NCBI GenBank assembly: GCA_963674745.2
Contig: CAXXDV010000001.1
Coordinates: 928,001-992,000, forward strand
Source of the DNA: Desulfosudaceae bacterium
GTDB lineage: Bacteria > Desulfobacterota > Desulfobacteria > Desulfobacterales > Desulfosudaceae
DNA: 64,000 nt
Reading direction: 5' to 3'
Position 1 is the stretch's first letter, and every line of letters starts with the position of its first letter. The notes under the pieces are model-generated. The model was not told where the DNA came from, ran no database searches, and saw only the letters and a program-made list of their open reading frames with translations. A program made the translations under genes and the position numbers. Of the stretch, positions 1 through 29,660 are shown piece after piece.

Positions 1-777
1 TTTTCCATGGATATCCTGGGCCGAAAGAAAACCAGCTACGGCAAGGTCCGGGCCTGGGGCACCGCCAGTTTCGTGGCGGTAGTAATCCTGATGGGACGAT
101 TAACGCACATCTATTCGGTAAATATTATCATCCCGTTGATTCTGGGCGGGCTGGTTCTGCAATCTTTCGGGACACTGCTGATGCCGGTGGTCAAACGTGA
201 CCGGCCGCAGGAAAAGCCGCCCATATCCACCCTGGCCAGAAAAAAACTCGTGGTTTTTCTCGTCTGCGGATTTCTGATGCTGGTCAGTCACGGTACGTAT
301 TACGGTTTTTTTTCCATCCATCTTGAAAACCTGGGCTTTGGAACCATGTTTATCGGATTTGCCTGGGCCCTTGCTTCAATTGCCGAAATAACGGTCATGA
401 TCGGTTCCACCCGGCTGTTTGACCGCTTTTCTTTGGAAAACGTGCTTGTTTTCTCTTTTTTCGTGGCCTGCATCCGCTGGATATTGCTGTTTTTCGCGGT
501 TTCCCCGGCAATGATACTGTTGGCTCAGCTTCTGCATGCCGTCACTTACGGCGCTTTTCACATGGCCAGCATCCTGTACATCGACCGGGTCAGCCCGGAA
601 GGCGCCAAAACCATCGGCCAGGCCTTGAACAACTCGGTATCGTTCGGACTGGGCATGATGATCGGGGTGTTTGTCAACGGCTACTTCTTTGATATGGTGG
701 GGTCTACGCCGTTGTTCATCGGCAGCGCTGTTGTGGCCGCCGTTGGCGGGCTTATCCTGTGGCCGGTACTTAAATAA
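1..777 (+). CDS. MFS transporter (HcaT/MFS_1-like), 5' end probably outside the window
   Basis: Many hydrophobic helices; YGKVRAWGT and AQLLHAVTYG motifs; frame is open from base 1. Confidence 0.85.
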   Translation, partial: FSMDILGRKKTSYGKVRAWGTASFVAVVILMGRLTHIYSVNIIIPLILGGLVLQSFGTLLMPVVKRDRPQEKPPISTLARKKLVVFLVCGFLMLVSHGTYYGFFSIHLENLGFGTMFIGFAWALASIAEITVMIGSTRLFDRFSLENVLVFSFFVACIRWILLFFAVSPAMILLAQLLHAVTYGAFHMASILYIDRVSPEGAKTIGQALNNSVSFGLGMMIGVFVNGYFFDMVGSTPLFIGSAVVAAVGGLILWPVLK

Positions 778-2808: not shown

Positions 2809-2936
2809 AAACGACTATAAACAAAAGTCGGACGAACGTCTGGATGTTCGGCTTGTGGGTTGAAATCCGGATATTCTTAACAGAACATGCGATCCGCATT
2901 ATACTTTTTTATATACAAACGACCTCGGGAAACACC

Positions 2937-3530
2937 ATGAGCAAAGACCGCCTCAAGCAACAAATCGACTTTATCCTGGAAATCGACCGGTTGAAAACCA
3001 TTGACCGCCGGACTTACCTGACCGACACCAGCCGTTTTGAAAACTCGGCCGAGCACTCCTGGCATATCGCCGTTATGGCCCTGGTTCTGTCCGAACATGC
3101 CAACAACCCGGACATTGATCTGTTAAAAGTGATCCGCATGCTGCTGCTTCATGACCTGGTGGAGATTGACGCCGGCGACACCTTTGCCTATGACATCCGG
3201 GCCAATGAAGACAAGCAGGTCCGGGAGCAGGCCGCGGCGGAAAGAATTTTTAACCTTTTGCCTCCGGACCAGGCCGCTGTTTTCCGGGAGGCCTGGGAAG
3301 AATTTGAGGCCAGACAGACCCCGGAAGCCGTGTTTGCCGCATCCCTTGACCGGCTTCAGCCCATGCTGCACAACCTGTATACCCGGGGCAAAGCCTGGCA
3401 GGAGCACGGGGTGCGAAAGGACCAGGTCCTTGCCTTCAACCGCCACATGGCCGAGGGCGCTTCCGCCCTGTGGGACTTCGCCGTTGCCGGCATTGAAAAA
3501 GCGGTTGATCGCGGCGATCTCCAGGAATAA
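2937..3530 (+). CDS. HD-domain hydrolase (HD_3/YfbR-like)
   Basis: ENSAEHSW, LLHDLVEIDAGD and DRLQP motifs; start moved to MSKDRL. Confidence 0.9.
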   Translation: MSKDRLKQQIDFILEIDRLKTIDRRTYLTDTSRFENSAEHSWHIAVMALVLSEHANNPDIDLLKVIRMLLLHDLVEIDAGDTFAYDIRANEDKQVREQAAAERIFNLLPPDQAAVFREAWEEFEARQTPEAVFAASLDRLQPMLHNLYTRGKAWQEHGVRKDQVLAFNRHMAEGASALWDFAVAGIEKAVDRGDLQE

Positions 3531-3543
3531 AAGGACATTAAAA

Positions 3544-4575
3544 ATGCCGGGCTGGTTTAAACCCCGATATCCTCGTCTGGACTGGATCCAGGTGGAAATT
3601 ACCTCCCGCTGTAACGCCGACTGTCGTTTTTGCCCCCATCACGCCTGGCGGCAGGACTGGCAAAACCGGGACATGTCGATAGAAACATTTGAATCCCTGT
3701 TACCGGCCTTAAAGAAAACGCGGCTGGTCTATCTTCAGGGCTGGGGCGAACCCTTTCTGCACCCCGATTTTTTTAAATTGCTCAACATCGGCAGGTCAGC
3801 CGGCGCCCGGGTGGGCACCACCACCAACGGGACCCTTCTCGACCGCTCAACAACCGAACGGATGGTGACCGAAAATCTTGATTTCATTGCCTTTTCCATG
3901 GCTGGTATGTCAGAAGAAAATGACCGGATCAGAAAAGGCACCCGCCTGGAATCTGTCCGCAAAGCCATAGAAACGCTCAAACAGGTCAAAGACAATCATG
4001 GCAGCCGCACCCCGGCTGTCCATATCGCTTTTATGCTGCTTCGTTCCCGGTTAAAGGAGATTGACCGCCTGCCGGATTTTTTTGCCGGCCTGGGCGTTGA
4101 CCAGGTCGTGATCAGCTCGTTGAGCCTGGCAACGGCGCCGGAATGGAAAAAGGAGGCCATTCTTGCCGACACGCCGGAAGAATGGGCCGAACTGACGGAA
4201 CAGGTTTTAAAGGCCCGTAAAACCGCCCGCCGCCGTAACCTGGATTTGCACTTCCGGCTGGTATCTCCCCTGGCCAAACCGGAACCGTGCCATGAAAATA
4301 TCCTTCACGCGATGGTGATCGGCGTCAACGGCGATGTTTCGCCGTGTGTGATGACCAACTTTCCCCATCCCCGGCCGCCGGCCCGTCGGGTCTTCGGCAA
4401 CATCAACCATCAGCCCTTAAACAACATTTGGCGAAACCCGGCCTACCGTTCCTTTCGTCGCCAATGGGCCACCGGGAACCTGCCGGAGGACTGCCGAATT
4501 TGTCTTAAAAGCCGGATGGTTGACATCGCGTCGGAGACATCCGGCCCGACCGGAAATCTGGTACCTGATTTTTAA
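3544..4575 (+). CDS. radical SAM / SPASM domain protein
   Basis: CNADCRFC (CxxxCxxC), GWGEP, C-terminal C...GDVSPC...CRIC; real start MPGWFK. Confidence 0.9.
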   Translation: MPGWFKPRYPRLDWIQVEITSRCNADCRFCPHHAWRQDWQNRDMSIETFESLLPALKKTRLVYLQGWGEPFLHPDFFKLLNIGRSAGARVGTTTNGTLLDRSTTERMVTENLDFIAFSMAGMSEENDRIRKGTRLESVRKAIETLKQVKDNHGSRTPAVHIAFMLLRSRLKEIDRLPDFFAGLGVDQVVISSLSLATAPEWKKEAILADTPEEWAELTEQVLKARKTARRRNLDLHFRLVSPLAKPEPCHENILHAMVIGVNGDVSPCVMTNFPHPRPPARRVFGNINHQPLNNIWRNPAYRSFRRQWATGNLPEDCRICLKSRMVDIASETSGPTGNLVPDF

Positions 4576-4733
4576 CGTTTTTGATTTACTTTCAGGCCCG
4601 TCTTTTTCCCGGCCCGGTGTTCGACGACACCCATGATCCAGTCGAACAGCGCTTTGAAAACCCACCTAAAAAATCATGCCTGACTCTTTTATGGACTTTT
4701 TTTAGATTTTTTGTAATTTTTATTCTTTTTTTC

Positions 4734-4760
4734 TTGACAAAAAAGTCCAATCTGACTTTT
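4734..4760 (+). promoter_or_regulatory. -35 box plus palindromic operator upstream of TetR
   Basis: TTGACA at 4734-4739 followed by a perfect inverted repeat AAAAGTC-N6-GACTTTT at 4741-4760. Confidence 0.6.
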
Positions 4761-4803
4761 ATTGTAATTTATCACCTCATAAAAACAAAAAGGAACCCAT
4801 TTT

Positions 4804-5478
4804 ATGGCCGGAAAAAAGCCTTCTCAAGCACCCAAAATGCAGCAACGGGCGATTGCCACGCGCCAGCGCTTTCTGGAAGCCACCCTCCAGTCCCTGGCGG
4901 AAAAAGGCTACGCCGCCACCACCACCCAGGAAATCTGCCGGCGCCTCAATGTGTCCCGGGGAACCCTGCTTCACCACTTTTCCACTCGCGAAGAACTGAT
5001 CATCGAGGCGGTGGAATATGTCCTGGGGGAAAACGTGAGCCACTTCAAACAGACCATGACCAACCTGGCCGGCCGTCAACTGACAATGGTCGACATTGCC
5101 AGAAACCTCTGGGAAGAGCACTGGACCAGTCCGACCTACTATGCCTGGTTGGAACTGGTGCTGGCCTCCCGGACCGATCCGGTGCTGAACAAACAGGTCC
5201 GCTCTCTGTCCGAACGGTGGACGGAAAAATTTCACGCCGCCTTCAGGGATGTCATGGGCCGGGAACCGGACGGGGTATACTGGCTGTTTTTTCTGGTATT
5301 GAACGCTTTATCCATTGAAACCATCCACACCATGCCGGAACGCGTTAACGGCTTTCTGGATGATTTAATGGCTTTTGTGGATATCACCGACCGGTTTTTC
5401 ATTCAGTATCCCGGGCGGGCGGCGGGCCCGACCAATAGACAGGAAGACAAAATCAAAAACGAGAAAGCAGAGCAGTAA
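4804..5478 (+). CDS. TetR/AcrR family regulator
   Basis: KGYAATTTQEICRRLNVSRGTLLHHFSTREEL helix-turn-helix. Confidence 0.95.
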   Translation: MAGKKPSQAPKMQQRAIATRQRFLEATLQSLAEKGYAATTTQEICRRLNVSRGTLLHHFSTREELIIEAVEYVLGENVSHFKQTMTNLAGRQLTMVDIARNLWEEHWTSPTYYAWLELVLASRTDPVLNKQVRSLSERWTEKFHAAFRDVMGREPDGVYWLFFLVLNALSIETIHTMPERVNGFLDDLMAFVDITDRFFIQYPGRAAGPTNRQEDKIKNEKAEQ

Positions 5479-5515
5479 TTGATTGCAGGATAGCGAAACA
5501 AAAAGGAGACAAGCA

Positions 5516-6655
5516 ATGACAATTCAACAACCATTTAAACAGGGCGCGGATTTTGAATACCTGCGCAAAGTGCTGATGCGGGAAGTATCCCAGGGCCCGG
5601 TGCCGATCATCGAGCTCGTAGTTGACGGCGACCCCATGTCCGAGGTGACGGGGCTGCCCACACCCTTCAGCAGCATGCTGGACATGGTTGATTTTGTGGA
5701 AGGTGACGGTTCCATAAATCAGGATTCGATAAGAAAGGCCGTACAGGTCTATGACCTCTCTCTGGGTTTTACCCGGGCGGTGGGCTATGATTATGTCACG
5801 ATCATTCCCGCCGTTCTCATTCCGCGCACCAAAGCGAATATCAGCCGGGAGATTCCCGGTCAGGTCAAGCAGCGGGGCTGGCAGAACGAACATGACGGCT
5901 TGATTCAGGACCGGGCCGCCTTTGAGGCTTTTCCCTGGCCGGACTCGAGCGGGCTTGGCCTTGTGGGTATCGACTATATTGCACCCCAGATGCCCGAAGG
6001 CGCCAAAATCATGGTTTTTTACATGGGTATATTCGAAGACCTGCGGGCGTTGATGGGGTTTGAGCAGATGGCCATCAAGAGTATTCGCGAACCCGAACTT
6101 ATCGGCGACATTCTGGAGAAACTGACGGTCATTGCCGAAACGGAGCTTGATAAAATCGCGGCCCATCCATCGGTCGGCGCGGTATTTTATGCCGAGGACA
6201 TGGGATTCAACACCGGCACCATGCTCTCGCCGGCCTTTTTCAAAGAATGGGTTATTCCCCGCCAGAAGCGCATCGCCGATGTCGTCCACAAGCACAACAA
6301 ACCGTTTCTGCTCCATTCCTGCGGCCAGGTCGACGCCCTGATGGAGGACCTGATCGAAGTAGTGGGTATCGACGGGTATCACAGCTTTGAAGACAACATC
6401 GAACCGGTCGAGGATTTCTATAAACGCTACCACGACCGCATCTCCATCCTCGGCGGCGTGGACGTCAACCTGCTCACCCACGGCAGCGAAGAAGAGGTAC
6501 GGACCCGATGCCGCCGGATTCTCGATGCCTGCGGTCCGGGCGGGGGTTTTGCCATCGGCTCGGGCAATTCCATCACCAATTACTGCAGTATCGAAAATTA
6601 TTACACCATGCTGGATGAGACCCGGCGCTGGAATGAAGAACAGGGCTTTAAATAA
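5516..6655 (+). CDS. uroporphyrinogen decarboxylase family / MtaA-CmuA-like methyltransferase
   Basis: AEDMG...MLSP, LLHSCG and ILGGVD motifs; AGGAG RBS before MTIQQ. Confidence 0.85.
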   Translation: MTIQQPFKQGADFEYLRKVLMREVSQGPVPIIELVVDGDPMSEVTGLPTPFSSMLDMVDFVEGDGSINQDSIRKAVQVYDLSLGFTRAVGYDYVTIIPAVLIPRTKANISREIPGQVKQRGWQNEHDGLIQDRAAFEAFPWPDSSGLGLVGIDYIAPQMPEGAKIMVFYMGIFEDLRALMGFEQMAIKSIREPELIGDILEKLTVIAETELDKIAAHPSVGAVFYAEDMGFNTGTMLSPAFFKEWVIPRQKRIADVVHKHNKPFLLHSCGQVDALMEDLIEVVGIDGYHSFEDNIEPVEDFYKRYHDRISILGGVDVNLLTHGSEEEVRTRCRRILDACGPGGGFAIGSGNSITNYCSIENYYTMLDETRRWNEEQGFK

Positions 6656-6668
6656 GGGAGACAAGCAT

Positions 6669-7289
6669 ATGAAAGAACTCAAAGAAAAAATCATTGCCGG
6701 AGATGAAGCAGGCACCGCAAAGATCGTCCGCAGCCTTTTGGACGACAAGGTCGAGGTCGAGATTATCATGAAACAGGGCCTGATCGCGGCCATGGACGAA
6801 GTGGGCGACCGGTTCCAGGCCGGCAAGATATACCTGCCGGAGATGCTGGTGGCGGCCCAGGCCATGAAAAGCGGCCTGGCCGTTTTAGAACCGTTAATCA
6901 AGGGCAGCGGCGTCAAACCGGCCGGCACGGCCGTCATCGGCACCATGCAGGGTGACCTGCACGACATCGGTAAAAACCTGGTCATCATGTCCCTGGAAGG
7001 CGCCGGTTTTGAAGTCGTTGACCTGGGCATGGACGTGCCACCGGAGAAATTTGTCGACGCCATTACCGCCCATCAACCCCGGGTGGTGGGCATGAGCGCA
7101 CTGCTTAGCACTACCATGTTAGGAATGGAAAAGACGGTTACAGCCATTACGGAAGCTGGTCTCCGGGACCAGGTCAAAATCATGGTCGGCGGCGCGCCCG
7201 TCAACCAGGATTTTGCGGACAGGATCGGGGCCGATTTTTACGGCAAGGATTCGGTTGCCGCCAAGGTTTTCGCGATAGAAGCGCTTTAA
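6669..7289 (+). CDS. corrinoid (B12-binding) methyl-carrier protein
   Basis: Cap domain plus GDLHDIGKNLV (DxHxxG), MSALL and VGGAP. Confidence 0.95.
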   Translation: MKELKEKIIAGDEAGTAKIVRSLLDDKVEVEIIMKQGLIAAMDEVGDRFQAGKIYLPEMLVAAQAMKSGLAVLEPLIKGSGVKPAGTAVIGTMQGDLHDIGKNLVIMSLEGAGFEVVDLGMDVPPEKFVDAITAHQPRVVGMSALLSTTMLGMEKTVTAITEAGLRDQVKIMVGGAPVNQDFADRIGADFYGKDSVAAKVFAIEAL

Positions 7290-7323
7290 CCCCCACAATC
7301 CATACCCATAAAAGAGGGAAAAC

Positions 7324-8454
7324 ATGGCACAGCAAACGTTTCACAGCATCTGCGCCTGGACGTTCAACGCCGGCAAAGGCGGGTTCACCCCTGCCGACAC
7401 CCGGCCGCAATGGACCGAAGACCGCCTGGACACCTGCGGTAAAATAGGCCTGATCAAGGATAAAATAGCCCCCCGGCTGCCCGATCATATTCATCTGGGC
7501 CTGGAGATTCATTACGACTATGAATACAATGAGAGTGATGCCGGGGCCATTGCCGACAAACTGGTCGAGACCGGGATTTCCCTGGCCATGACCACGCCGG
7601 GCGCCCACCGACATTTCCCTTATGGTGGTCCTGCCTCTCCTGACATAAAGGAACGGGACGCGGCCCGGGAATACAGCGCGAAAGCCCTTGACCTGACCTA
7701 CGGTCCCCTGAAGAAGGCCTGGCACCCGGAGGTCCCGCCGGCTTTCGTCATCTGGAACGGTTCCTTCGGCTATGACCTGGCCACGGTCGGCATCCGCAAT
7801 ATGTACCAGAACCTGAAGGAAAGCGTGGCCGGTTTATGCCGGCTGGAAGCGGAACGCGGCGGACATCTGCATATTGCCATCGAGCCCAAGCCCAACGAAG
7901 GCCACCCGGCCATGCTCCTGCCCACGGTTGCCTCGGCCATCGTGTTCTGGCGAAAACTGCACGAGGAGTTCGGCATTGACCTGAAGCAAAAAGGGGTCAA
8001 CAAGGAGTTCGGTCATTCGGAAATGATCGGGCTGGACCATGTCTATGATACCGTGGAAGAGATCGACAACCACATGCTCTGCCACATGCACATCAACAGC
8101 CAGGGTTACAACGACGGCCTGATCCTGGGCGGCCCGGGTAAATACGATATCGACAACGGCGCCCGCATCAACGGCATGAATATCGCCATTGCCGGGCTGA
8201 TTCAACAGGCCGGCTATAACCGCTGGAAAGGCCACGACATGCAGGTCCGCGCCCATGACACCGAAGCGCAGGGCATCGACCGGGTCGTTCGCAGCATCTT
8301 AAGCTGGGACGCCTGCGAACAGGCGGCAGCGGCTCTGGATTATGACACCCTGAACGACCACCTGGCCGACCGCGAAACCGCCAAAGCCGAAGACATCATG
8401 CGCCGGGCCGTCATGCACGCCTGTGACATTTTTTACCAAATGTACGAAAGGTAG
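7324..8454 (+). CDS. xylA: xylose isomerase-like TIM-barrel protein (divergent)
   Basis: IEPKPNE, NKEFGH and KYDID motifs; linked to xylulokinase. Confidence 0.75.
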   Translation: MAQQTFHSICAWTFNAGKGGFTPADTRPQWTEDRLDTCGKIGLIKDKIAPRLPDHIHLGLEIHYDYEYNESDAGAIADKLVETGISLAMTTPGAHRHFPYGGPASPDIKERDAAREYSAKALDLTYGPLKKAWHPEVPPAFVIWNGSFGYDLATVGIRNMYQNLKESVAGLCRLEAERGGHLHIAIEPKPNEGHPAMLLPTVASAIVFWRKLHEEFGIDLKQKGVNKEFGHSEMIGLDHVYDTVEEIDNHMLCHMHINSQGYNDGLILGGPGKYDIDNGARINGMNIAIAGLIQQAGYNRWKGHDMQVRAHDTEAQGIDRVVRSILSWDACEQAAAALDYDTLNDHLADRETAKAEDIMRRAVMHACDIFYQMYER

Positions 8455-8561
8455 GGGCGGCCCCCTGTGGCCGCCCAACTGGTGGGCAACCACGGGGGGA
8501 TTGCCCCTACATGAACACCGATCATGCGCATCGTAGGGGCAGCCACGAGAGGTGCCCCTAC
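8451..8561. repeat. GTAG-family REP / REPIN-like palindromic cluster
   Basis: GTAGGGGC...GCCCCTAC inverted pairs at 8451-8510 and 8533-8561. Confidence 0.8.
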
Positions 8562-8595
8562 ATGAACCGCTGATAAATGAAGGTAAAAACACTTA

Positions 8596-10677
8596 ATGAC
8601 CAAAGACAAAGAAAAACGGTTCCCCCGCCTGGCCAGACAACTCCGTGAATCAGACGATGCGTCCGCGCTGGAAAAAGGGGTTGCCGACCTCCTCTCCGCC
8701 ATGACCCTGGGCGAAAAAATCGCGCAGATGTCCGGTAACGCGACATTATTCGACTTGGGCATTATGCTGGTCCGTTATAACCTGAAGACTTACAATTCAG
8801 GAGAGAACAAACGCCTGGGCATCCCGGCCATAAGGTTTACCGACGGTCCCCGCGGCATCACCGTGGGCAATTCGACCTGTTTTCCCGTATCCATGGCCCG
8901 GGGCGCCACCTGGGACCCGGCCCTTGAAGAAAAGGCCGGCAACGTCATGGGCACCGAAGCCAGGGCCCAGGGCGCCAATTTTTTCGGCGGTGTGTGTATC
9001 AATGTACTGCGACATCCCGGTTGGGGAAGAGCCCAGGAAACGTTCGGGGAAGACCCGCACCTGTTGGGGGAAATGGGCTCGGCCGCCATCCGGGGCGTCC
9101 AACCGCATGCCATGACCTGCGCCAAGCATTTTGCCTGCAACAGCATCGAAGAATCCCGGTTTTACGTGGATGTTCATATCGACGAGCAGGCCCTGCGTGA
9201 AGTCTATCTGCCTCATTTTAAAAAATGCGTTGACGCCGGTGCCGACTGCGTCATGAGCGCCTATAACCGCGTCAACGGCGAGTATTGCGGTCACAATGAA
9301 CACCTCCTGGCCGGCATTTTAAAAAACGAGTGGGACTTTAGCGGCTTTGTCATGTCTGATTTCTGCTACGGTGTTTATGACGCCCGGGACGGGGTCACGG
9401 CCGGCCTGGACATGGAAATGCCGGACACCAAATGTTACGGCAAAAAGCTTCGGAACCTGGTCGAACAAGGACAGATTCCGGAGGCGATCATCGACCGGGC
9501 AGTGACGCGGATTCTTGGCGCAAAGCTCAAATTCGCCCTTCGTGATCAGTCGGCCGCTTACACAAAAGACAAGATCGCCTGCCCCGGGCATACCCGCCTG
9601 GCTTACGAGGTGGCCTGTAAAAGCATGGTCCTGCTGAAAAACGACCACCACGCGCTTCCCCTGGACCGGACAAAAATCAAGCGCATCGCCGTACTGGGCC
9701 GCCTGGCCGACAAAGCCAACCTGGGGGACAAGGGCAGCAGCCTTGTCCGCCCGCCATACGTGGTGACACCGCTCGAAGGCATTAAAAACAAAGCCGGCAA
9801 AGACATCACCGTTCTGTCTTATACCGGTAATGATCCGACCCGGGCCGCGCAGACAGCCGCAAAGGCCGATGCAACGGTGATCGTGACCGGGCTGACCAGC
9901 CGACAGGAAGGGGAGTATTTCCCGCGCATCCGGGGCGGCGACCGCCTTGACCTTGGCCTTGACGAACAGGACATTAAACTGATCCATGCGGCCTGTAAAC
10001 AGGGCGGCCCCTGCATCGTCATACTCCAGGGCGGCTCGGCCATTAGCATGGAGGACTGGAAAGACGACGTCAGCGCCATCCTTATGGCATGGTATCCGGG
10101 CATGGAAGGCGGCCACGCCACGGCGGACATCCTCTTTGGCGATGTCAACCCCGGCGGCCGGTTACCGATCACCTTTTTCAAGTCAGAAGACCAGCTTTTC
10201 CCGTTTGACAAAAAAGCCCGAACCGTGACCTATGATCTCTATCACGGTTATCGTTACGCGGATCGAAACAGAATCGAACCGGCCTTTTATTTCGGGTTCG
10301 GACTGAGCTATACGCAGTTTTCATATTCAGACCTGGACCTTGTCGACGACACCCTTTCCTTGGACGGCACACTCAAGGCCAGGGTGGCTGTCACCAATAC
10401 CGGGCAAAAGGCAGGAGATGAAGTGACCCAGCTGTATATTCAATACCCGGCCGCGGATGTGCCCCGACCGGTCAAGGAGTTAAAAGCCTTTAAGCGGACT
10501 TCACTTTCTCCCGGAGAAACGAAAACCGTGGAGTTGACGATTTCCGTCAGCGATCTGGCTTATTATTCAACCGCCGACAAAAACTGGAAGGTTGCACTGG
10601 GGGAATACACTGTCCGGGTCGGGCCTTCGTCCAATCCGGACGATCTGAGACTGTCACGGACATTTATTGTACACTGA
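8596..10677 (+). CDS. GH3 beta-glucosidase/beta-xylosidase (no signal peptide)
   Basis: DGPRG, GRAQETFGEDP, AKHF, VMSDF nucleophile, FGFGLSYT and an Fn3-like tail. Confidence 0.95.
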   Translation: MTKDKEKRFPRLARQLRESDDASALEKGVADLLSAMTLGEKIAQMSGNATLFDLGIMLVRYNLKTYNSGENKRLGIPAIRFTDGPRGITVGNSTCFPVSMARGATWDPALEEKAGNVMGTEARAQGANFFGGVCINVLRHPGWGRAQETFGEDPHLLGEMGSAAIRGVQPHAMTCAKHFACNSIEESRFYVDVHIDEQALREVYLPHFKKCVDAGADCVMSAYNRVNGEYCGHNEHLLAGILKNEWDFSGFVMSDFCYGVYDARDGVTAGLDMEMPDTKCYGKKLRNLVEQGQIPEAIIDRAVTRILGAKLKFALRDQSAAYTKDKIACPGHTRLAYEVACKSMVLLKNDHHALPLDRTKIKRIAVLGRLADKANLGDKGSSLVRPPYVVTPLEGIKNKAGKDITVLSYTGNDPTRAAQTAAKADATVIVTGLTSRQEGEYFPRIRGGDRLDLGLDEQDIKLIHAACKQGGPCIVILQGGSAISMEDWKDDVSAILMAWYPGMEGGHATADILFGDVNPGGRLPITFFKSEDQLFPFDKKARTVTYDLYHGYRYADRNRIEPAFYFGFGLSYTQFSYSDLDLVDDTLSLDGTLKARVAVTNTGQKAGDEVTQLYIQYPAADVPRPVKELKAFKRTSLSPGETKTVELTISVSDLAYYSTADKNWKVALGEYTVRVGPSSNPDDLRLSRTFIVH

Positions 10678-10796
10678 ATGTGATTAAGTGGTTATGTGGT
10701 TAAGTGATTAAGGAACTGAGAAATCCGCCGGGTGGCACCGGCAACTTGTTGCCGGTGTCCGTGGGACAGGAGAAAAAAAGAAGGGACATACCCATC

Positions 10797-12326
10797 ATGA
10801 CAGCATATTTTTTGGGTATCGACAGCGGCACCCAATCCACCAAAGCCCTGATCGTGGACGAAACCGGTCAGACAGTCGGCCGGGGCCAGAAAGCATATGA
10901 CCTGATCCAGGGTCTCGGCGCCGGTCACAAAGAACAGCACCCGCAGACATGGATTGACGCGCTTGCGGCAGCGGTCCATGAGGCATTAAAAAATTCCGGA
11001 ATCGATGCCGGACAAATAGCAGCCCTGGGCGTGTCCGGTCAGCAGCATGGATTCGTCCCCCTGGATGCCGAAGGCGAGGTTATCCGCCCGGCCAAGCTCT
11101 GGTGCGATACCGCCACCGCACCCCAGGCGGAAAAAATCGTCAACACTGTCGGCGGCCCGGATGAAATGATACGGCTGACCGGCAACGGCCTGCCGGCCGG
11201 GTTCACGGCTTCCAAAATTCTCTATTTAAAAGAACAGGAGCCGGACAATTATCAACACCTGGCCACGATCCTCCTGCCCCATGACTATATCAACTTCCGG
11301 CTGACCGGGGAAAAGCGCATGGAGTGGGGAGACGCCTCGGGCACCGGCCTGATGAATGTCCGCGCCCGAACGTTCTGTGAACCCGTCATCAACGCCATTG
11401 ATCCGGGTATAAAAAATTTCCTGCCGGATCTTTACCCCTCATGGGAAGCCTGCGGCCGGCTTATCCCGACAGCCGCGGAATTGCTCGGCCTCAAGCCGGA
11501 CATCCTGGTCAGCGCCGGCGGGGGCGACAACATGATGGCCGCCATGGGCACGGGCAATGTGCAACCGGGCATTGTCACCGCCAGCGTCGGTACCTCCGGT
11601 ACCATTTACGCTTTCAACCCCGAACCGGTGATTGATCCCGGCGGAGAGATCGCCGCTTTCTGCGACAGCACCGGCCACTGGCTGCCGCTGCTGTGCGTCA
11701 TGAACGCCACCGTGGCCACCGAACTGGTCAAACAGCTCTTTTCCCTGGCCACCGATGAACTCAACCGCCTGGCCGGACAGGTTCCGCCGGGCGCGGACGG
11801 CTTGATGCTGCTGCCCTATTTCGAGGGTGAACGGGTGCCGGATGTCCCGGACGGTTCCGGCGTCTGGTTCGGCCAGAACCAGACCAATGCCACACCCGCC
11901 CATTTATCGCGGGCCGCCATGGAAGGTGTCGCTCTGGGCATGGGATACGGCCTGGCAAGACTGAAGGACCTGGGCATTGCGCCGACGGAAATCAGGTTGA
12001 CCGGCGGCGGCGGCAACAGCCCGGTGTGGCGACAGATCATGGCCGATGTGTTTCAAACCGGAGTGGTCTGCACCCGCCAGACAGAAAGCGCGGCTTTTGG
12101 CGCGGCCATCCAGGCCGCCTGGACCTGGTATTCGCAAACAGACCGACCGGTTGATATCACCGACATCACAGGTGCCTGGGTCGGCCTTGATGAATCAACC
12201 CGCTGTGCGCCGCACCCGGAATACAGGCCCCTTTATGAAGAGATGCAGGGTTGCCACAACGCGCTTTCCCGATCCACGCGGGATGTTTTTGCCCGCCATC
12301 ACCGCCTGTTTTCTTCACAGGAGTAA
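10797..12326 (+). CDS. xylB: xylulokinase (FGGY family)
   Basis: GIDSGTQSTK, SGQQHG, LWCD, GGGDN, GTSGT and GERVP motifs. Confidence 0.92.
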   Translation: MTAYFLGIDSGTQSTKALIVDETGQTVGRGQKAYDLIQGLGAGHKEQHPQTWIDALAAAVHEALKNSGIDAGQIAALGVSGQQHGFVPLDAEGEVIRPAKLWCDTATAPQAEKIVNTVGGPDEMIRLTGNGLPAGFTASKILYLKEQEPDNYQHLATILLPHDYINFRLTGEKRMEWGDASGTGLMNVRARTFCEPVINAIDPGIKNFLPDLYPSWEACGRLIPTAAELLGLKPDILVSAGGGDNMMAAMGTGNVQPGIVTASVGTSGTIYAFNPEPVIDPGGEIAAFCDSTGHWLPLLCVMNATVATELVKQLFSLATDELNRLAGQVPPGADGLMLLPYFEGERVPDVPDGSGVWFGQNQTNATPAHLSRAAMEGVALGMGYGLARLKDLGIAPTEIRLTGGGGNSPVWRQIMADVFQTGVVCTRQTESAAFGAAIQAAWTWYSQTDRPVDITDITGAWVGLDESTRCAPHPEYRPLYEEMQGCHNALSRSTRDVFARHHRLFSSQE

Positions 12327-15525: not shown

Positions 15526-18500
15526 ATGCAATACCTTCAAAAAACATTTAATTTGCTTCACTATACCTGTCTACGGATTGCTGTAATTATTTGTTTAGTT
15601 GCCTTGATTGGTTTTTATGGGTGTGGTGGCGGGAGTCACAGTTCATCCTCAACTCCCGGGGATGGGGATAATGGCAGCGATGAATCACCAACAGTGCAAG
15701 AAGGCGTGCTCATCGATAGTCCAGTAAAAGGTTTGAATTTTAAAACAAACTCTCAGGCGGGTATTACAGATGATAATGGTACTTTTTTATATTTGAATGG
15801 TGAAACGATCGAGTTTTTACTGGGTAGCCTTTCTTTGGGACAGACGATTGGTAAATTGCAACTATCTCCGATTGATCTCATAAACAGCATTGAAGGCGAC
15901 ACCAACCCTGCTGTAGTGAATATCTGCCGACTTTTACAGTCTCTTGATAGTGATAATAACCTGGATAACGGAATCCAGATTGATCCGCAGGTCATAAATC
16001 AAATTAACGGCCTGCAGACAGCTTTTAATTTTGACGCAGATTTTTTTTATGATGATGAGAATGTTCAAGCACTTTTTGATGCATTGAATGATGCCGGCGT
16101 CTTTGCTAATGGTCCCCGTAAATTAAAATCCAAGGCGCAAGCCATCACTCATTTACGAAAGAGTTTGGGTTTAGACGAATGTTCTCCTTGTGAAGGCAAG
16201 GTCAGCGAGTTGACCTTACAATATAATGGGCGTTCTAACCCCCGGGTTAAAATTGTACAAGAAGACGGAGAAGTGGTTTTTGATGGTGCGGTTTCTCCCA
16301 GTGAACAGTTTACTATTGCCGGCCGGGACGACAAAGGGACATTGAGTCCGTGGGTTATGGTTTATATAAATAATATTGAACAGTCCCAAGTCCATACCAG
16401 TTGTTCTGTCCCGATAGGGCCCGGACTGATTATCGGTGATTTTGAAATTATTTCCGGTTTCAGTCGTAATGGCGGTCCGCTTTGTCCGGTAGCTGAAGAT
16501 GATACCGGGGATAATGGTGATAACGACATTGATGGTGATAACGATCAACCGAACACATATTATCTTGATGCTGATGGAGACGGATACGGTAATCCCGGAA
16601 CTTACACTCAGGCAGTAACCGCGCCGGCCGGGTTTGTAAGTGACAACACGGACTGTAATGATAATGATGCAACCATAAATCCAGGCGCCGATGAGGTCTG
16701 TGGGGATGATATCGACAATAACTGTGACAATACGCTTGATGACGGTTGTGCATATTATTATCAGGATGCAGATCAAGACACTTATGGTGATTCCACAATG
16801 AGTGTTTTTGGATCTTCTGCGCCAGCGGGCTATGTGGACGACGGTACAGACTGCAATGACGAAAATTCCAATATCAATCCGGGCGCGACTGAAATTTGTG
16901 ATGGATTAGACAATGATTGTGATGGATTCATAGATGAGGGATGCCGTTATTATTACCGGGATTCGGATGGCGATGGATACGGTAATCCTGCGATAGTTAC
17001 TTTTGCACGTTTTGCTCCGGCTGGATATGTAATCAACGACACAGACTGCGATGATACTGATATAACGGCTTATCCCGGCGCAGATGAACTCTGTGACGGG
17101 AAAGACAACAACTGTGACGGTATAATTGATGAGCCGGCGGCGGGAACGGCGGATGTGACATTTGCCGGTCTTCTTGAAGAGATGGTCAATCGCGAAGGCT
17201 TCATGCTGAATACAGCGCCGGAATACACGTCGGCCATGTTCAGCAGTTATGACAGGGGCTCAATCCCGGAAGGGCGTGATAATTTGGATTTTTGCCAGTA
17301 CGTTCGCCAGGAGTTGATTGACGGCAGGAACGAGTGGGTCATGTTTGACCATGAGGGACCGGGGGCGGTGGTGCGTATCTGGCTGACCGCGCCATTATAC
17401 CAGGGTACCATCCGGATTTATCTGAATTCTTCAGACACGCCGGTCATTGAAGGCGCACCGGACGATATTGTGGGAAAACAGGCGCTGGTGGGAAGCCCCC
17501 TGTCCGCGGAACGCTCCCTCGGGATGAATCTCTATCTGCCGATTCCGTATGCCTGTCACTGCAAGATCACCTATGACGGCAACAACTGTTTTGAGACCTT
17601 AGACCCGGATGACCTCTTTTATTACCAGATCAACTATCGTACCTATGCAGCGGGTACCACGGTTCAATCGTTCTCCATGGACGATCTTACGACCTATGGC
17701 ACGGAAATTCAGAACGCTCAGGACCATCTGTCCACACCGTCAATGTCTGTTTCCGCACCGGACAGAACCATCAGCGGCACTCCGGGGATTGTGCTGGACC
17801 CCGGCGAAACGTTTGAACAGCCGGTTTCAGGCCCCGGGGCCATCACCCGGTTGCAAATCTCTTTAGACAGTGCCGCAGACGTAGATCAAGCCTTGCGGTC
17901 AACGGTTCTGGCGATCGATTTTGACGGTGTTACCAGGGTCTGGAGCCCTGTCGGCGACTTTTTCGGCTCGGGTCCGGGACGTTATCCTTATGTCACATGG
18001 TGGCAGGAAGTGTCCGGTGATAACACGATGACGTCACGATGGGTCATGCCGTTTCAGGCAACGGCCGTCATCCGGTTCATCAATCTCGGCAGCCAGCAGG
18101 TTACGGTTTCTCTGAAGGATACAGCGGTGATAGACGATGCCTGGCGGGAGGGGTATTCCATGTATTTTCATGCCACATGGCACAGCCAGCGCAATATCCC
18201 GGTTACAGCGTTTACAGGCAGTGATTGGAATTATGTGACCATCAGCGGGAAGGGCCTGTATATGGGGGATACCCTTACGGTATATAACCGTGCTTCTGTA
18301 TGGTGGGGAGAGGGAGATTCCAAGATATGGGTGGATGGCGATACATTCCCGTCATTTTTCGGGACCGGAACCGAGGATTATTACGGATATGCGTTCTGCG
18401 GGGATGGCGGTACTTATGAGGCGCCGTTTCATGCCCAGCCCCGGGGAGAGGGCGATTCGGATAACATCGGCTATACCACAAACACGCGCACACGCAGCCT

Positions 18501-18666
18501 GGACGCGATACCCTTTACCAGCAGGCTGCAGGTCGATATGGAACTCTGGCACTGGGCGACAACAGGGATGGACTACGCGGTGACCTGCTACTGGTACGCC
18601 TTTGACGGGGCGACATCAAACCGGGTTGCCGAGCCGGATGAAGCCGCCGCCCAGCTTGTTGAGTAG
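15526..18666 (+). CDS. large lipoprotein with MopE-like Cys/Asp repeats and a C-terminal GH172 (DUF2961) domain
   Basis: Lipobox FYG-C; repeated DxDGDGYG...DCND...PGAxExC-DxxDNxCD units; WGEGD and GTGTEDYYG motifs. Confidence 0.85.
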   Translation: MQYLQKTFNLLHYTCLRIAVIICLVALIGFYGCGGGSHSSSSTPGDGDNGSDESPTVQEGVLIDSPVKGLNFKTNSQAGITDDNGTFLYLNGETIEFLLGSLSLGQTIGKLQLSPIDLINSIEGDTNPAVVNICRLLQSLDSDNNLDNGIQIDPQVINQINGLQTAFNFDADFFYDDENVQALFDALNDAGVFANGPRKLKSKAQAITHLRKSLGLDECSPCEGKVSELTLQYNGRSNPRVKIVQEDGEVVFDGAVSPSEQFTIAGRDDKGTLSPWVMVYINNIEQSQVHTSCSVPIGPGLIIGDFEIISGFSRNGGPLCPVAEDDTGDNGDNDIDGDNDQPNTYYLDADGDGYGNPGTYTQAVTAPAGFVSDNTDCNDNDATINPGADEVCGDDIDNNCDNTLDDGCAYYYQDADQDTYGDSTMSVFGSSAPAGYVDDGTDCNDENSNINPGATEICDGLDNDCDGFIDEGCRYYYRDSDGDGYGNPAIVTFARFAPAGYVINDTDCDDTDITAYPGADELCDGKDNNCDGIIDEPAAGTADVTFAGLLEEMVNREGFMLNTAPEYTSAMFSSYDRGSIPEGRDNLDFCQYVRQELIDGRNEWVMFDHEGPGAVVRIWLTAPLYQGTIRIYLNSSDTPVIEGAPDDIVGKQALVGSPLSAERSLGMNLYLPIPYACHCKITYDGNNCFETLDPDDLFYYQINYRTYAAGTTVQSFSMDDLTTYGTEIQNAQDHLSTPSMSVSAPDRTISGTPGIVLDPGETFEQPVSGPGAITRLQISLDSAADVDQALRSTVLAIDFDGVTRVWSPVGDFFGSGPGRYPYVTWWQEVSGDNTMTSRWVMPFQATAVIRFINLGSQQVTVSLKDTAVIDDAWREGYSMYFHATWHSQRNIPVTAFTGSDWNYVTISGKGLYMGDTLTVYNRASVWWGEGDSKIWVDGDTFPSFFGTGTEDYYGYAFCGDGGTYEAPFHAQPRGEGDSDNIGYTTNTRTRSLDAIPFTSRLQVDMELWHWATTGMDYAVTCYWYAFDGATSNRVAEPDEAAAQLVE

Positions 18667-27333: not shown

Positions 27334-27463
27334 ACCCAACGGGAAGCTGAGGGGCCGGGCGTCTTGAACTCGGAGCCTCAGATAAATCCTTTATTTTGCT
27401 AAATCATATGTTTCAGGGAAAACCGCGCGTTAAGCCCGGTCCAACTCAAGAGTTTTGTTCGGG
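27334..27463 (-). other. attC site (130 bp)
   Basis: CCCGAAC-AAAAC-TCTTGAGTTGGACCGGGC...GCCCGGCCCCTCAGC-TTCCC-GTTGGGT. Confidence 0.85.
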
Positions 27464-28348
27464 TTTAAGGTCATTCTTTAGTATTTTGAAAGGATTGCTA
27501 TTTAGTTCCCATTGCTCAATTTCTTGATACAAGTTTGTCAAAACAAAATCATTTATTGAGTAGGCTAAACGGAAAAGTCTGTGGATATTGCCATTTTCTG
27601 CAATGGAAGCCTGTAATGTTGCAAACAATTTCCGCAGACTTAATGCAAATAGACCGAGCAAATCATGTCCGCATGAAAGTTCCAATTTATCGAGATCTTC
27701 TTCATTCTCCATAACTTGATTTATAAGAGTTATAATTTCTGCATCTTGAGGCAAGTCCAATTCATAGTTATGTTTTGCAGCATTTTGTTGAGTAATGTCC
27801 TGCACATATCGCACCATTTTGTCTATATCTATTTCAAGGGTACTTTTGTTCGTGAATTTTTGATAATTTAATTCGTGAAACACAAAATGAAAATTGTTTC
27901 TCTGTGATATAAGCCTGAAGATTCCTATCATACTAGATTTCGAATAAAAGAAGTCTTTCAAATTGTCATATCCAATTATTTTTCTTGGCGAACAATACTC
28001 AGAAACTACTCGACTAAATGCATTGCTATTAAAAAGCATACCTTCAACGTCGTGAGTATCGGACACTAAAATATTGTCAGGCAAATCAGGAAGGCCTTCA
28101 ACCCGCCAGAAATCGGCATCAACTATTGCCAATATCCCCTTTCCTGCTGAATCATTCACTATCTCGATTGCAGAAATTGCATTATCTTTACCGTGAGCTA
28201 TAATGATATGCGTAAAATGAGAATCGAAAAAATTTTCAAATAACATAGAATCATTGTTGCCTTCGAGAATAACAATCGTATCAGGAAAAGCAGTTCGAAC
28301 CATTTCCACTTCGGTAGCTATAGATTCTCCTGTAACATTCTCAAGCAT
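27446..28348 (-). CDS. ariB: DUF4435 / TOPRIM-like protein (PARIS AriB-like)
   Basis: ILEGNND, IVDADF, HDVE and CGHDL motifs; overlaps the ATPase gene. Confidence 0.8.
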   Translation of the reverse strand: MLENVTGESIATEVEMVRTAFPDTIVILEGNNDSMLFENFFDSHFTHIIIAHGKDNAISAIEIVNDSAGKGILAIVDADFWRVEGLPDLPDNILVSDTHDVEGMLFNSNAFSRVVSEYCSPRKIIGYDNLKDFFYSKSSMIGIFRLISQRNNFHFVFHELNYQKFTNKSTLEIDIDKMVRYVQDITQQNAAKHNYELDLPQDAEIITLINQVMENEEDLDKLELSCGHDLLGLFALSLRKLFATLQASIAENGNIHRLFRLAYSINDFVLTNLYQEIEQWELNSNPFKILKNDLKPEQNS

Positions 28349-29660
28349 TTCCCCCTCCCTTTGGCAAAGAAACCATTAATGAACGTCGGTCATGAATAAT
28401 AGAAGGAGAATGGGTGGCGATGAGAAAATCAAGATCAGCCAATTTTGATATTCGCTCAATATCATTTAAAAATTTATGTTGCCATGTTACATGAAGAGAC
28501 AACTCAGGCTCATCTATCATAATGAATGATTTCTCTGGCACTTTGAATAAAAGTTCATACGCCAAAACTAATTCATGCTGTTCGCCAGAAGAAAGACATT
28601 TAAGAGGGACATTTTTGCCAGAATCTAATTTAAAGACAAATCCATCAGATTTGCTTAAGGAGAATGATTTATACAGGAAGCGAGAGTTGATAATATCCTT
28701 GAACAATTCAACCTTTTTCATTAATGGATCGAACACCTTAAGTTTTTCATCGATATCATTCAAATAATACCATAGTAATTTTAAATCGTTAGACTCTATA
28801 TTGCTGGTGGGCAGGGAGACTTGTTCTTCTTCATCGATCAATCCAGCTTTCATTAATCGTCCCCTATAAGAACTTTGATTTTGGTATTTTTCTCTAATAT
28901 TCTTTTCGGTAGCTTCCTTTGGGGCGCCAGATTCAAGCAATCTATGGGGGAATGTTCTATCCAATGATGCAGCGACAGAACCTGATTGCCGTAATGTTTC
29001 TTGAAGCTTCTCGGCCATTTCAACCGAGTATTTCTCCACAGTATTTCTTGTTCGTACCTGGCTTCTTGGTGATCTATATGATTCTTCATGGCTCAGAACC
29101 AACAATCGCTGAGTCTGAATAAAATATGTTTTCAAATTTGATAAAATATCAATAATCTCCTTTGGCATTGAATCATGAGAGCCTTTAGTAAAAGGGAGGT
29201 CATTGCCATATCTGTATAAAACCTCTTCTAATGAGATCATTTCTCCTGTACTAGTATCAAACCATCTCCTAGGTCCAGTTCTGTCTAAGTGGGGGATGAC
29301 ATCGTCAATTATATGAATAGGGAAGTCTTTTCCTAATTCCTCTTGCGTTAAGGAAAAATCAATAGAGCCCCTCTGGAGAACGTTTCTTCCTTTTTTTAAC
29401 TTCAGAGACAAGGTCATATTGCCGTTCTTTTTAATTTCCAATTTCTGTTTATTTGTAAAAGTTATCAGAACTTTGGAGAATGGCACTGTTTTAATGACAT
29501 GAAATTTTTTGCTGAAAATATCTTTTATAAGCTGTAATATTGTGGTTTTCCCAACGCCGTTAGGTCCGTGAATAATTGTTATTCTATCAGAGACTTTGAG
29601 CTTGATGTCGTGATCAAACATCCCAAATATTTTCATTATTTCAATTCGTTCAATTCGCAT
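28341..29660 (-). CDS. ariA: ABC-type ATPase AAA_15/AAA_21 (PARIS AriA-like)
   Basis: Walker A GPNGVGKT, signature LSSGEQ, Walker B IDEPE and H-loop ATHS. Confidence 0.85.
   Translation of the reverse strand: MRIERIEIMKIFGMFDHDIKLKVSDRITIIHGPNGVGKTTILQLIKDIFSKKFHVIKTVPFSKVLITFTNKQKLEIKKNGNMTLSLKLKKGRNVLQRGSIDFSLTQEELGKDFPIHIIDDVIPHLDRTGPRRWFDTSTGEMISLEEVLYRYGNDLPFTKGSHDSMPKEIIDILSNLKTYFIQTQRLLVLSHEESYRSPRSQVRTRNTVEKYSVEMAEKLQETLRQSGSVAASLDRTFPHRLLESGAPKEATEKNIREKYQNQSSYRGRLMKAGLIDEEEQVSLPTSNIESNDLKLLWYYLNDIDEKLKVFDPLMKKVELFKDIINSRFLYKSFSLSKSDGFVFKLDSGKNVPLKCLSSGEQHELVLAYELLFKVPEKSFIMIDEPELSLHVTWQHKFLNDIERISKLADLDFLIATHSPSIIHDRRSLMVSLPKGGGNA

Follow-up and report, generated by a model that had tools for sequence, protein, structure and literature searches.

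In a 64,000-nucleotide (nt) stretch of the genome of a Desulfosudaceae bacterium (assembly GCA_963674745.2, contig CAXXDV010000001.1, positions 928,001 to 992,000; here named the window), six genes on the + strand, between 4804 and 12326, may form an operon that joins a methyl-transfer pair to sugar catabolism. They encode, in order, a TetR-family regulator, a UroD/MtaA-fold protein, a corrinoid protein, a xylose isomerase-like (XI-like) protein, a glycoside hydrolase of family 3 (GH3) and the xylulokinase XylB, as assigned by Pfam and NCBIfam profile searches and by reading of the sequence (Table 1). The six tightly spaced co-directional genes of the original prediction, which had been made from the letters of the DNA alone, are all present on this strand with their families matched by profiles, and the intergenic gaps from TetR to XylB are 37, 13, 34, 141 and 119 nt. 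We propose, tentatively, that the operon is TetR-controlled and that its UroD-clade enzyme and corrinoid protein remove the methyl group from an O-methylated sugar or glycoside in a pathway that is joined to xylose catabolism. A further-reaching claim, that the UroD clade represents the first oxygen-free carbohydrate O-demethylase, a zinc/corrinoid enzyme stripping sugar methyl ethers (O-methyl-pentoses, 4-O-methyl-glucuronate), is put forward as a rather doubtful one. Where a sugar carries a methyl ether, the ordinary glycosidases and sugar pathways are blocked; such methylated sugars include 4-O-methyl-glucuronate in xylan, 2-O-methyl-xylose and 2-O-methyl-fucose in pectin, 6-O-methyl-galactose in red algae and 2'-O-methyl-ribose in RNA.

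The methyl-transfer pair was found next to sugar genes in several lineages. In the host genome, the sole GH3/XI-like/XylB set abuts one of three UroD-family genes, each of which lies beside a corrinoid gene. As for synteny, on which the original prediction had staked itself, the linkage of the pair to xyl genes holds in a congener (G002), where the layout HD-TetR-UroD-corrinoid-XI-GH3-XylB is kept at 74-88% identity, and, as partial layouts, in another family (f79) of the same phylum, in Dehalococcoidia, in a Spirochaetota metagenome-assembled genome (MAG) and on metagenome contigs. More specifically, in G306 a GH38 gene and one gene without assignment precede UroD (55%) and corrinoid (57%) genes, followed by FGGY kinase and XI-like genes. 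In G084, G121 and G334, GH3 and GH4 genes are divergent from the UroD-corrinoid pair, and TetR, GH1, GH51, epimerase, FGGY, XI-like and GH31 genes lie within 13-15 kb further on the same contig. Three Dehalococcoidia loci (L015, L021 and L024) combine a UroD orthologue (51-60%) with GH3 and with a XylB that passes its cut-off at 528-568 bits; GH1 is present as well in L015 and L021. A single strand of the Spirochaetota locus L016 carries genes for a corrinoid fusion, a canonical MtaA-like UroD, the UroD orthologue, PfkB, a nucleoside hydrolase, an FGGY-like kinase, a frameshifted XI-like protein, GH3 and GH1. Among the metagenome contigs, GH3-GH4-GH13 genes are divergent from UroD-corrinoid in L124, a GH3-UroD-RACo order is seen in L157 and L160 (in L160 followed by a PF02574 gene), and two GH3 genes stand with a sugar ABC transporter and UroD in L174.

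This association was also visible at the genome level. Of 400 other genomes sampled from the phylum, nine had a UroD orthologue (threshold E <= 1e-170) and 10 the XI-like gene; six of the nine held both, with about 0.2 expected if the two were independent. Judged by these comparisons, chance does not account for the link of the methyl-transfer pair to the sugar genes.

The UroD-fold protein probably starts at ATG 5516, as an AGGAG lies 7 nt upstream and the resulting length fits that of the homologues, of 378 amino acids (aa); the upstream TTG at 5483 was rejected, giving a protein of 390 aa. The earlier description of this protein as UroD/MtaA-like stood as a statement on its fold and failed as one on its family. 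The AlphaFold2 model (predicted local distance difference test, pLDDT, 84.2) has the UroD-type TIM-barrel fold, with MtaA (4ay7) as its top PDB match (E 4.4e-13, template modelling (TM) score 0.68/0.76); searches by sequence returned no close solved relative. On the other side, scores against TIGR01463 (54.6, cut-off 235.4) and NF004889 (59.3, cut-off 244) were far too low, the MtaA/MtbA family models as a whole gave 39-59 bits against cut-offs of 235-600, the part matching the MtaA/CmuA models covered only about residues 186-383, and the His-x-Cys...Cys zinc site is not complete. More than 100 proteins at 55-97% identity, from Thermodesulfobacteriota, Chloroflexota, 'Solincola' and others, and at least 355 clusters at 50% identity with E <= 1e-30 belong with it, spread over Desulfobacterota, Chloroflexota, Spirochaetota, Planctomycetota, Armatimonadota and other phyla. 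A search of the ESM Atlas returned 'URO-D family' clusters only. By these comparisons the protein is a member of a large, unnamed and uncharacterised clade. Directly beside UroD orthologues in other genomes we also observed a family of about 370 aa (L109:5213-6346, L020:11898-13028 and L017:12699-15895, the last with three tandem paralogues) that gave no Pfam match above threshold, its best being a weak CrtC-type lipocalin (E 3e-4), and that is absent from the window.

The metal site bears on the kind of methyl group that the enzyme may accept. Alignments to MtaA and to the canonical MtaA-like protein of the host itself place His267-x-Cys269 on the zinc HxC of MtaA, while Asn351 aligns with the third zinc Cys (APGC stretch of MtaA). 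Residue counts over 233 clade sequences, of which 117 were close homologues and the other 116 distant representatives, show His267 conserved in 232 and His289 in 224. At position 269 there is Cys in 211 and Asp in 22, the Asp being confined to the 116 representatives, and at position 351 there is Asn in 228 and Cys in none. A His-Cys-Cys thiol site made of H267, C269 and C339 was considered and dropped, since in the alignments C339 falls within a helix, paired with a Leu, and the ligand position is taken by Asn351. According to the available text of a preprint (Kountz and Balskus, PMC10418091), S-methyltransferases of the UroD superfamily have His-Cys-Cys, and in the O-methyltransferases one or both Cys are replaced. 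By this rule, and given the Asn at the third zinc-ligand position, the clade leans toward the O-type rather than the S-type.

The second member of the pair combines a B12-binding_2 cap with a B12-binding Rossmann domain, its gene begins 13 nt past the UroD stop, and the DxHxxG motif could be read from the translation as D96/H98/G101. In the PDB it comes closest to 1y80 (1.3e-57) and to the MttC chain 7xcn_M. It scores below the subfamily cut-offs (TIGR02370, 186.5 versus 215.3; MtgC NF047996, 193.9 versus 370) and, by its profile scores, is a carrier of no named specificity. An MT I (substrate-specific methyltransferase) role of the UroD protein is supported by a corrinoid gene adjacent to or near UroD in 7/24 genome and 8/17 metagenome loci (at least 47% identity), and by the presence of RACo with the UroD gene in L050, L157 and L160, to which L050 and L160 add a PF02574 methyltransferase. 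In L016 (5628-7634), we also noted a 668-aa protein that joins a C-terminal corrinoid module to an N-terminal region of about 460 aa giving no Pfam match, followed by the canonical MtaA-like UroD.

Pfam annotation of 4.5-12.6 kb bore out the earlier statement that the cluster holds no transporter, corrinoid reactivase or second methyltransferase, and the cluster in this interval is not a four-component O-demethylase with methyltransferase II (MT II) and activase encoded alongside. The genome carries, elsewhere, three RACo activase genes, four pterin-binding (Pterin_bind) genes, one of them adjoining a RACo gene and another some 2.3 kb away from an acetyl-CoA synthase gene, and that acetyl-CoA synthase gene itself; no PF02574 domain was found in it. 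From this gene content it is plausible that MT II and the reactivase are supplied in trans, and that the methyl group is oxidised by the Wood-Ljungdahl enzymes.

Turning to the sugar genes, the xylulokinase named in the original prediction passes the curated TIGR01312 cut-off for XylB; from ATG 10797 the protein is 509 aa long, and the congener orthologue aligns from residue 1 at 77% identity. The GH3 protein has the N-terminal, C-terminal and Fn3-like domains of the family, shows no hydrophobic N-terminus or signal peptide evident by eye, and is the only multi-domain GH3 of the host genome. It reached no NCBIfam equivalog cut-off, the best models (arabinopyranosidase, Xyl3A, beta-xylosidase, BglX) all being far from satisfied. 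Its closest structure is BglB (7ms2, 6.9e-115), and the nearest structures are beta-glucosidases with xylosidases close behind; the candidate types are a beta-glucosidase, a beta-xylosidase and an alpha-L-arabinopyranosidase. The route from GH3 through an isomerase to xylulokinase, as it had been proposed, agrees with these family assignments.

The isomerase step would rest on the xylose isomerase-like protein: its model resembles the XI fold, and all 36 of 36 PDB matches of its family profile are xylose isomerases (best 1.1e-16), but it stands in a separate clade and failed the XylA cut-offs (64.1 against TIGR02631, class I, with a cut-off of 447). No match to TIGR02630 (class II xylA) was found in the host genome. 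The model (pLDDT 80) matched class I XI at a TM score of about 0.70, and the IEPKPNE and NxExGHxxM motifs are kept. An invariant His256 aligns with the Asp of the XI 'HIDLN' stretch, which we take to be the metal ligand D245, and the HMMER alignment stops short of the N-terminal catalytic His region. Homologues about 70% identical, named 'xylose isomerase' in their sources, occur across Desulfobacterota, Spirochaetota, Goldbacteria, Firmicutes and Actinomycetota. At the 10 XI-like loci of the phylum sample, an FGGY kinase is adjacent in 8/10, a nucleoside hydrolase gene nearby in 3/10 and a UroD-family gene nearby in 3/10, and glycoside hydrolases (GH3, GH67, GH51, GH4, GH1, GH31, GH38, and a GH2 sugar-binding domain) lie near in 6/10.

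The regulation of the cluster was addressed by phylogenetic footprinting, which supports the candidate that had been described as a TetR regulator with a palindromic operator. The TetR protein reached no NCBIfam equivalog cut-off. Its orthologues, at 64-78% identity, adjoin UroD orthologues in the congener (G002), in G001 and in L032, and the palindrome AAAGTC-N6-GACTTT is conserved upstream of all three, where the match is exact except for a single mismatch in G001; this conservation supports the putative operator. In the window, the only exact match is the one at 4742-4759, and six matches with up to two mismatches were counted against 2.4 expected. The second, degenerate box is also conserved upstream of TetR in the same three genomes and contigs, as judged by eye. 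At the place of the TTGACA hexamer, G001 has TTGCAA and G002 has TTGCTA; the consensus scan called no sigma-70 promoter at TTGACA. The host genome carries a second TetR-corrinoid-UroD cluster (L113, G000:C1:336500-342500), followed by a gene for a protein with a Met_synt_B12 activation-like domain. The UroD frame there contains a single in-frame TGA that may stand for selenocysteine or mark a break, and the corrinoid-UroD-Met_synt_B12 trio is also present in L032.

Taken in sequence, the proposed mechanism would run as follows. A methylated sugar or glycoside would enter the cell by a transporter encoded elsewhere and, as methylated substrate, relieve TetR at the AAAGTC-N6-GACTTT operator. The UroD-fold enzyme would act as the MT I, with its His-Cys(-Asn/His) metal site polarising the ether oxygen, so that the methyl group of the substrate could be taken up by Co(I) of the neighbouring corrinoid protein. 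From there a pterin-binding methyltransferase, its gene lying outside the cluster, would hand the methyl to tetrahydrofolate (THF) and the Wood-Ljungdahl enzymes, and oxidised corrinoid would be rescued by one of the three RACo-type activases. The cytoplasmic GH3 would cleave the glycoside, the XI-like protein would isomerise the pentose, and XylB would yield xylulose 5-phosphate. Of this account, the gene identities, the folds, the operator sequence, the repeated linkage and the candidates for partners in trans were observed; we infer the O-methylated sugar as donor, the direction of methyl flow, the order of the steps and the co-transcription of the genes.

The neighbours across loci appear to favour a carbohydrate donor, since they include GH38, GH51, GH4, GH31, GH172-type and GH94-type enzymes, ribokinase and nucleoside hydrolase, with none for aromatic rings. 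This evidence, which is one of gene context and not of chemistry, has to be set against an alternative in which GH3 frees xylose or glucose from a methoxylated aromatic glycoside, lignin-derived or a plant phenolic, the UroD-corrinoid pair O-demethylates the phenolic aglycone, and the sugar enters the pentose route. The O-demethylases of acetogens and of Desulfitobacterium, which act on phenolics, are the model for it. The metal site not being of the thiol type suits such a substrate, GH1 and GH3 beta-glycosidases are often encoded nearby, aryl or cello beta-glucosidases are the structures nearest to the GH3, and in L015 and L021 a gene for a Peripla_BP_6 binding protein, a family that includes aromatic-acid binders, lies between GH1 and GH3. 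Aryl methyl ether MT I enzymes of the UroD superfamily are moreover known, as described in the accessible text of the sources: OdmB and VdmB (PMC10418091) and MtoB (PMC8630106). However, genes for aromatic-ring handling were not seen in any annotated neighbourhood, and the carbohydrate enzymes listed above indicate glycan or nucleoside sugars, not aryl glycosides. Aglycone demethylation is in our view unlikely.

It is also conceivable that two unrelated modules share one promoter or island, a TetR-UroD-corrinoid module for a non-carbohydrate donor and an ordinary xyloside module of XI, GH3 and XylB. L032 has the first of these without sugar genes, the operator travels with TetR-UroD-corrinoid, and the spacer that parts XI from GH3 measures 141 nt with hairpins here and about 650 nt in the congener. 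Furthermore, sugar genes were not shown at most loci of the clade, and 7/10 XI-like loci of the phylum have XI-like and FGGY genes without a UroD gene. The co-location in at least four lineages with differing gene orders, the genome-level overlap (6/9 versus 10/400) and the start of the XI-like gene 34 nt past the corrinoid gene, with no terminator-like site between, all speak against such a partition, which we hold to be quite unlikely. The least probable of the alternatives, that UroD is an S- or Se-methyltransferase resembling MtaA/MtsA, with a methylthio sugar (such as 5-methylthioribose) or a thiol acceptor as its target, can draw on MtaA as closest solved fold with His-x-Cys kept, on nucleoside hydrolase and ribokinase genes near UroD or XI-like genes in L016, L042, L105, L106 and L111, and on the homocysteine-type PF02574 methyltransferase in L050 and L160, but seems very improbable, as the third zinc Cys of the S-type (available text of PMC10418091) is Asn in 228/233 and never Cys, Cys269 gives way to Asp in 22/116 distant representatives, the MtaA/MtbA models are missed by a wide distance (39-59 bits against 235-600) and the kinase here is a true XylB.

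Several points weigh against the demethylation of an O-methylated sugar. The leaving group is a more difficult problem in an alkyl methyl ether than in an aryl methyl ether, beta-glucosidases are the structures nearest to the GH3, and the operon includes no transporter. The linkage may reflect few independent events, as all six genomes with both UroD and XI-like genes fall in one family. By tblastn, a GH3 similar to that of the operon was found in 4/78 genome and 4/79 metagenome loci, and 41 loci of at least 47% identity gave a corrinoid gene in 15, GH3 in 5, FGGY in 7 and the XI-like family in 1. Some glycoside hydrolase was present in 9/22 Pfam-annotated loci (of the 24 genome loci of at least 47% identity), and part of this association could be background in phyla rich in carbohydrate-active enzymes, the counts coming without a matched control. 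L032, a contig of a Pseudomonadota-labelled MAG, combines TetR-UroD-corrinoid (64-72%) with a glycyl-radical enzyme and lacks sugar genes, in three or four Dehalococcoidia loci the UroD gene stands between prfA-prmC and ETF genes, and many of the compared contigs are short. L028 and L029 were judged mainly by tblastn, both L028 open reading frames and several spurious antisense frames over UroD genes being left out of the Pfam annotation. Finally, the rule on O- versus S-type sites comes from a single preprint (PMC10418091), and its application to this clade is tentative. The methyl-sugar operon of the original prediction is in this way partly supported, by its gene calls, by a sugar route that fits the family assignments, by its linkage and by a metal site leaning to O-methyl, and weakened by the many loci of the UroD clade, the majority, that come without sugar genes.

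Table 1. Coordinates of the genes and DNA elements of the putative operon (positions in the window)
Feature	Coordinates	Strand	Remarks
Degenerate second operator box	4670-4687	.	2 mismatches; 72 bp upstream of the main palindrome
TTGACA, -35-like hexamer	4734-4739	+	Abuts the palindrome
Palindromic operator candidate, AAAAGTC + 6-nt spacer + GACTTTT	4741-4760	.	Core AAAGTCCAATCTGACTTT at 4742-4759
TetR-family regulator, 224 aa	4804-5478	+	PF00440 (TetR_N) 56.5 bits
UroD/MtaA-fold protein, candidate substrate:corrinoid methyltransferase (MT I)	5516-6655	+	PF01208 79.3 bits
Corrinoid (B12-binding) methyl-carrier protein, 206 aa	6669-7289	+	PF02607 73.7 bits, PF02310 98.4 bits
Xylose-isomerase-like TIM barrel, 376 aa	7324-8454	+	Distinct, highly conserved clade
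Two REP-like GC-rich hairpins, GTAGGGGC...GCCCCTAC then CATGAAC	8451-8567	.	Within the 141-nt XI-GH3 spacer; no T-run after
Three-domain GH3 exo-glycosidase	8596-10677	+	PF00933 147.5, PF01915 193, PF14310 90 bits
Perfect 10-bp inverted repeat	10736-10757	.	In the 119-nt GH3-XylB spacer; no T-run after
Xylulokinase XylB, 509 aa	10797-12326	+	TIGR01312 500.9, above the cut-off of 380.25

The spacers and surroundings of the operon were also inspected. No terminator-like site was found on the + strand between the operon genes (9 sites in the scan versus 11.6 expected in shuffles); as both the terminator and the promoter scans were at or below shuffle expectation, they carry little or no weight. 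Hairpins of the repetitive extragenic palindromic (REP)-like type with a 12-nt loop occur at 16 sites genome-wide, all on contig C3, and the reversed-pattern control gave 0. No Rfam family reached its gathering score in 1-20 kb of the window. GC content was considered as a sign of transfer and led to no conclusion, the cluster having 55-58% GC and equal values occurring elsewhere in the window. Directly upstream of the operon, at 2844-4575 (+), lie genes for an HD_3 (YfbR-like) phosphohydrolase and a radical-SAM/SPASM protein; the HD gene is kept upstream of TetR in the congener, where the radical-SAM gene has no match. Part of an MFS_1_like / nucleoside:H+ symporter-like transporter gene, its 5' end cut by the window edge, occupies 1-777 (+), on the strand of the operon and upstream of it by about 4 kb and five genes; it is a possible but unlinked uptake candidate. 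At 15526-18666 (+), 3.2 kb downstream of the operon, a 1046-aa protein is encoded with C-terminal DUF2961, MopE-type copper-binding motifs and DUF7467. DUF2961, presumably the GH172 glycosidase family, is also encoded next to UroD paralogues and corrinoid genes in L017, L018 and L020. Further away, at 27446-29660 (-), adjacent DUF4435 and AAA_15 ATPase genes, a pairing that we take to resemble the PARIS (AriA/AriB) anti-phage system, lie in a region of low GC, together with an ORF6N-domain gene and several others giving no Pfam match.

If the proposed reading is true, a corrinoid sugar demethylase would explain how methylated sugars are dealt with in anoxic sediments, guts and digesters, and carbohydrates would join the substrate range of B12 methyltransferase systems. 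Anaerobes could then draw on methylated glycans and gain energy or carbon from the methyl group. In sulfate reducers and Dehalococcoidia, which to our knowledge are not known for sugar use, glycan breakdown would be tied to C1 metabolism. The XI-like clade, about 70% identical across phyla and nearly always with an FGGY kinase as neighbour, is an uncharacterised isomerase family of interest in its own right. The host genome is 99.96% complete in 3 contigs and, as the assembly is nearly closed, may come from a culture.

In summary, the parts of this cluster are of known kinds, namely corrinoid methyltransferase systems and xyl genes; neither their combination nor the UroD and XI-like clades have been characterised. 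A literature search that missed most subscription journals found no corrinoid-dependent sugar demethylase; the sole sugar demethylase that it returned, from the accessible text of PMC6292453, was an oxygen-dependent cytochrome P450.

Among known systems, the corrinoid O-demethylases (Odm/Vdm of Acetobacterium dehalogenans and Mto of Methermicoccus shengliensis) are made of MT I, a corrinoid protein, MT II and an activating enzyme. The present cluster resembles them in having a UroD-superfamily methyltransferase next to a small B12-binding_2/B12-binding protein, a non-thiol metal site and an anaerobic host with Wood-Ljungdahl genes. It differs in that 2/4 components are in the cluster, with MT II and activase elsewhere in the genome, in that the operon partners are sugar enzymes and not aromatic-compound genes, and in its apparently separate, uncharacterised UroD clade. 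With the soluble coenzyme M methyltransferases MtaA, MtbA and MtsA, the enzyme shares its best structural match (4ay7) and the aligned His-x-Cys, but identity is about 16%, the TIGR01463 score is 54.6 versus 235.4, and Asn replaces the third zinc Cys. Type 1 mlp clusters, as the available text of PMC10418091 presents them, likewise pair UroD-superfamily and corrinoid proteins outside methanogens with no THF methyltransferase in the cluster. Their definition, however, which holds at least two Mlps (Mlp2, Mlp3), a Ram/RACE activase, His-Cys-Cys and a sulfur/selenium gene context, does not cover the present case, which has a single UroD gene, lacks an activase, shows Asn in place of the third ligand and includes sugar genes.

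The sugar half of the operon is closest to xylAB operons with a class I XI (Streptomyces/Arthrobacter type), with which it shares a putative isomerase, a xylulokinase and a beta-glycosidase, a fold resembling that of XI and the EPKPNE and E..H motifs. In contrast to these, the isomerase is about 20% identical to solved XIs, fails TIGR02631 and has an invariant His at the 'HIDLN' Asp position, and the operon has a TetR regulator, not XylR, and no xylose transporter. As regards the proposed task, the nearest system is the cytochrome P450 demethylase for 6-O-methyl-D-galactose of porphyran, encoded among polysaccharide-degradation genes (PMC6292453 and PMC10033563, in their accessible text), which also removes a sugar methyl ether before ordinary sugar catabolism. 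The P450 is oxygen-dependent, yields formaldehyde and belongs to an unrelated protein family, whereas the enzyme proposed here would transfer the methyl group to cobalt free of oxygen and, if so, would be an anaerobic equivalent of that P450.

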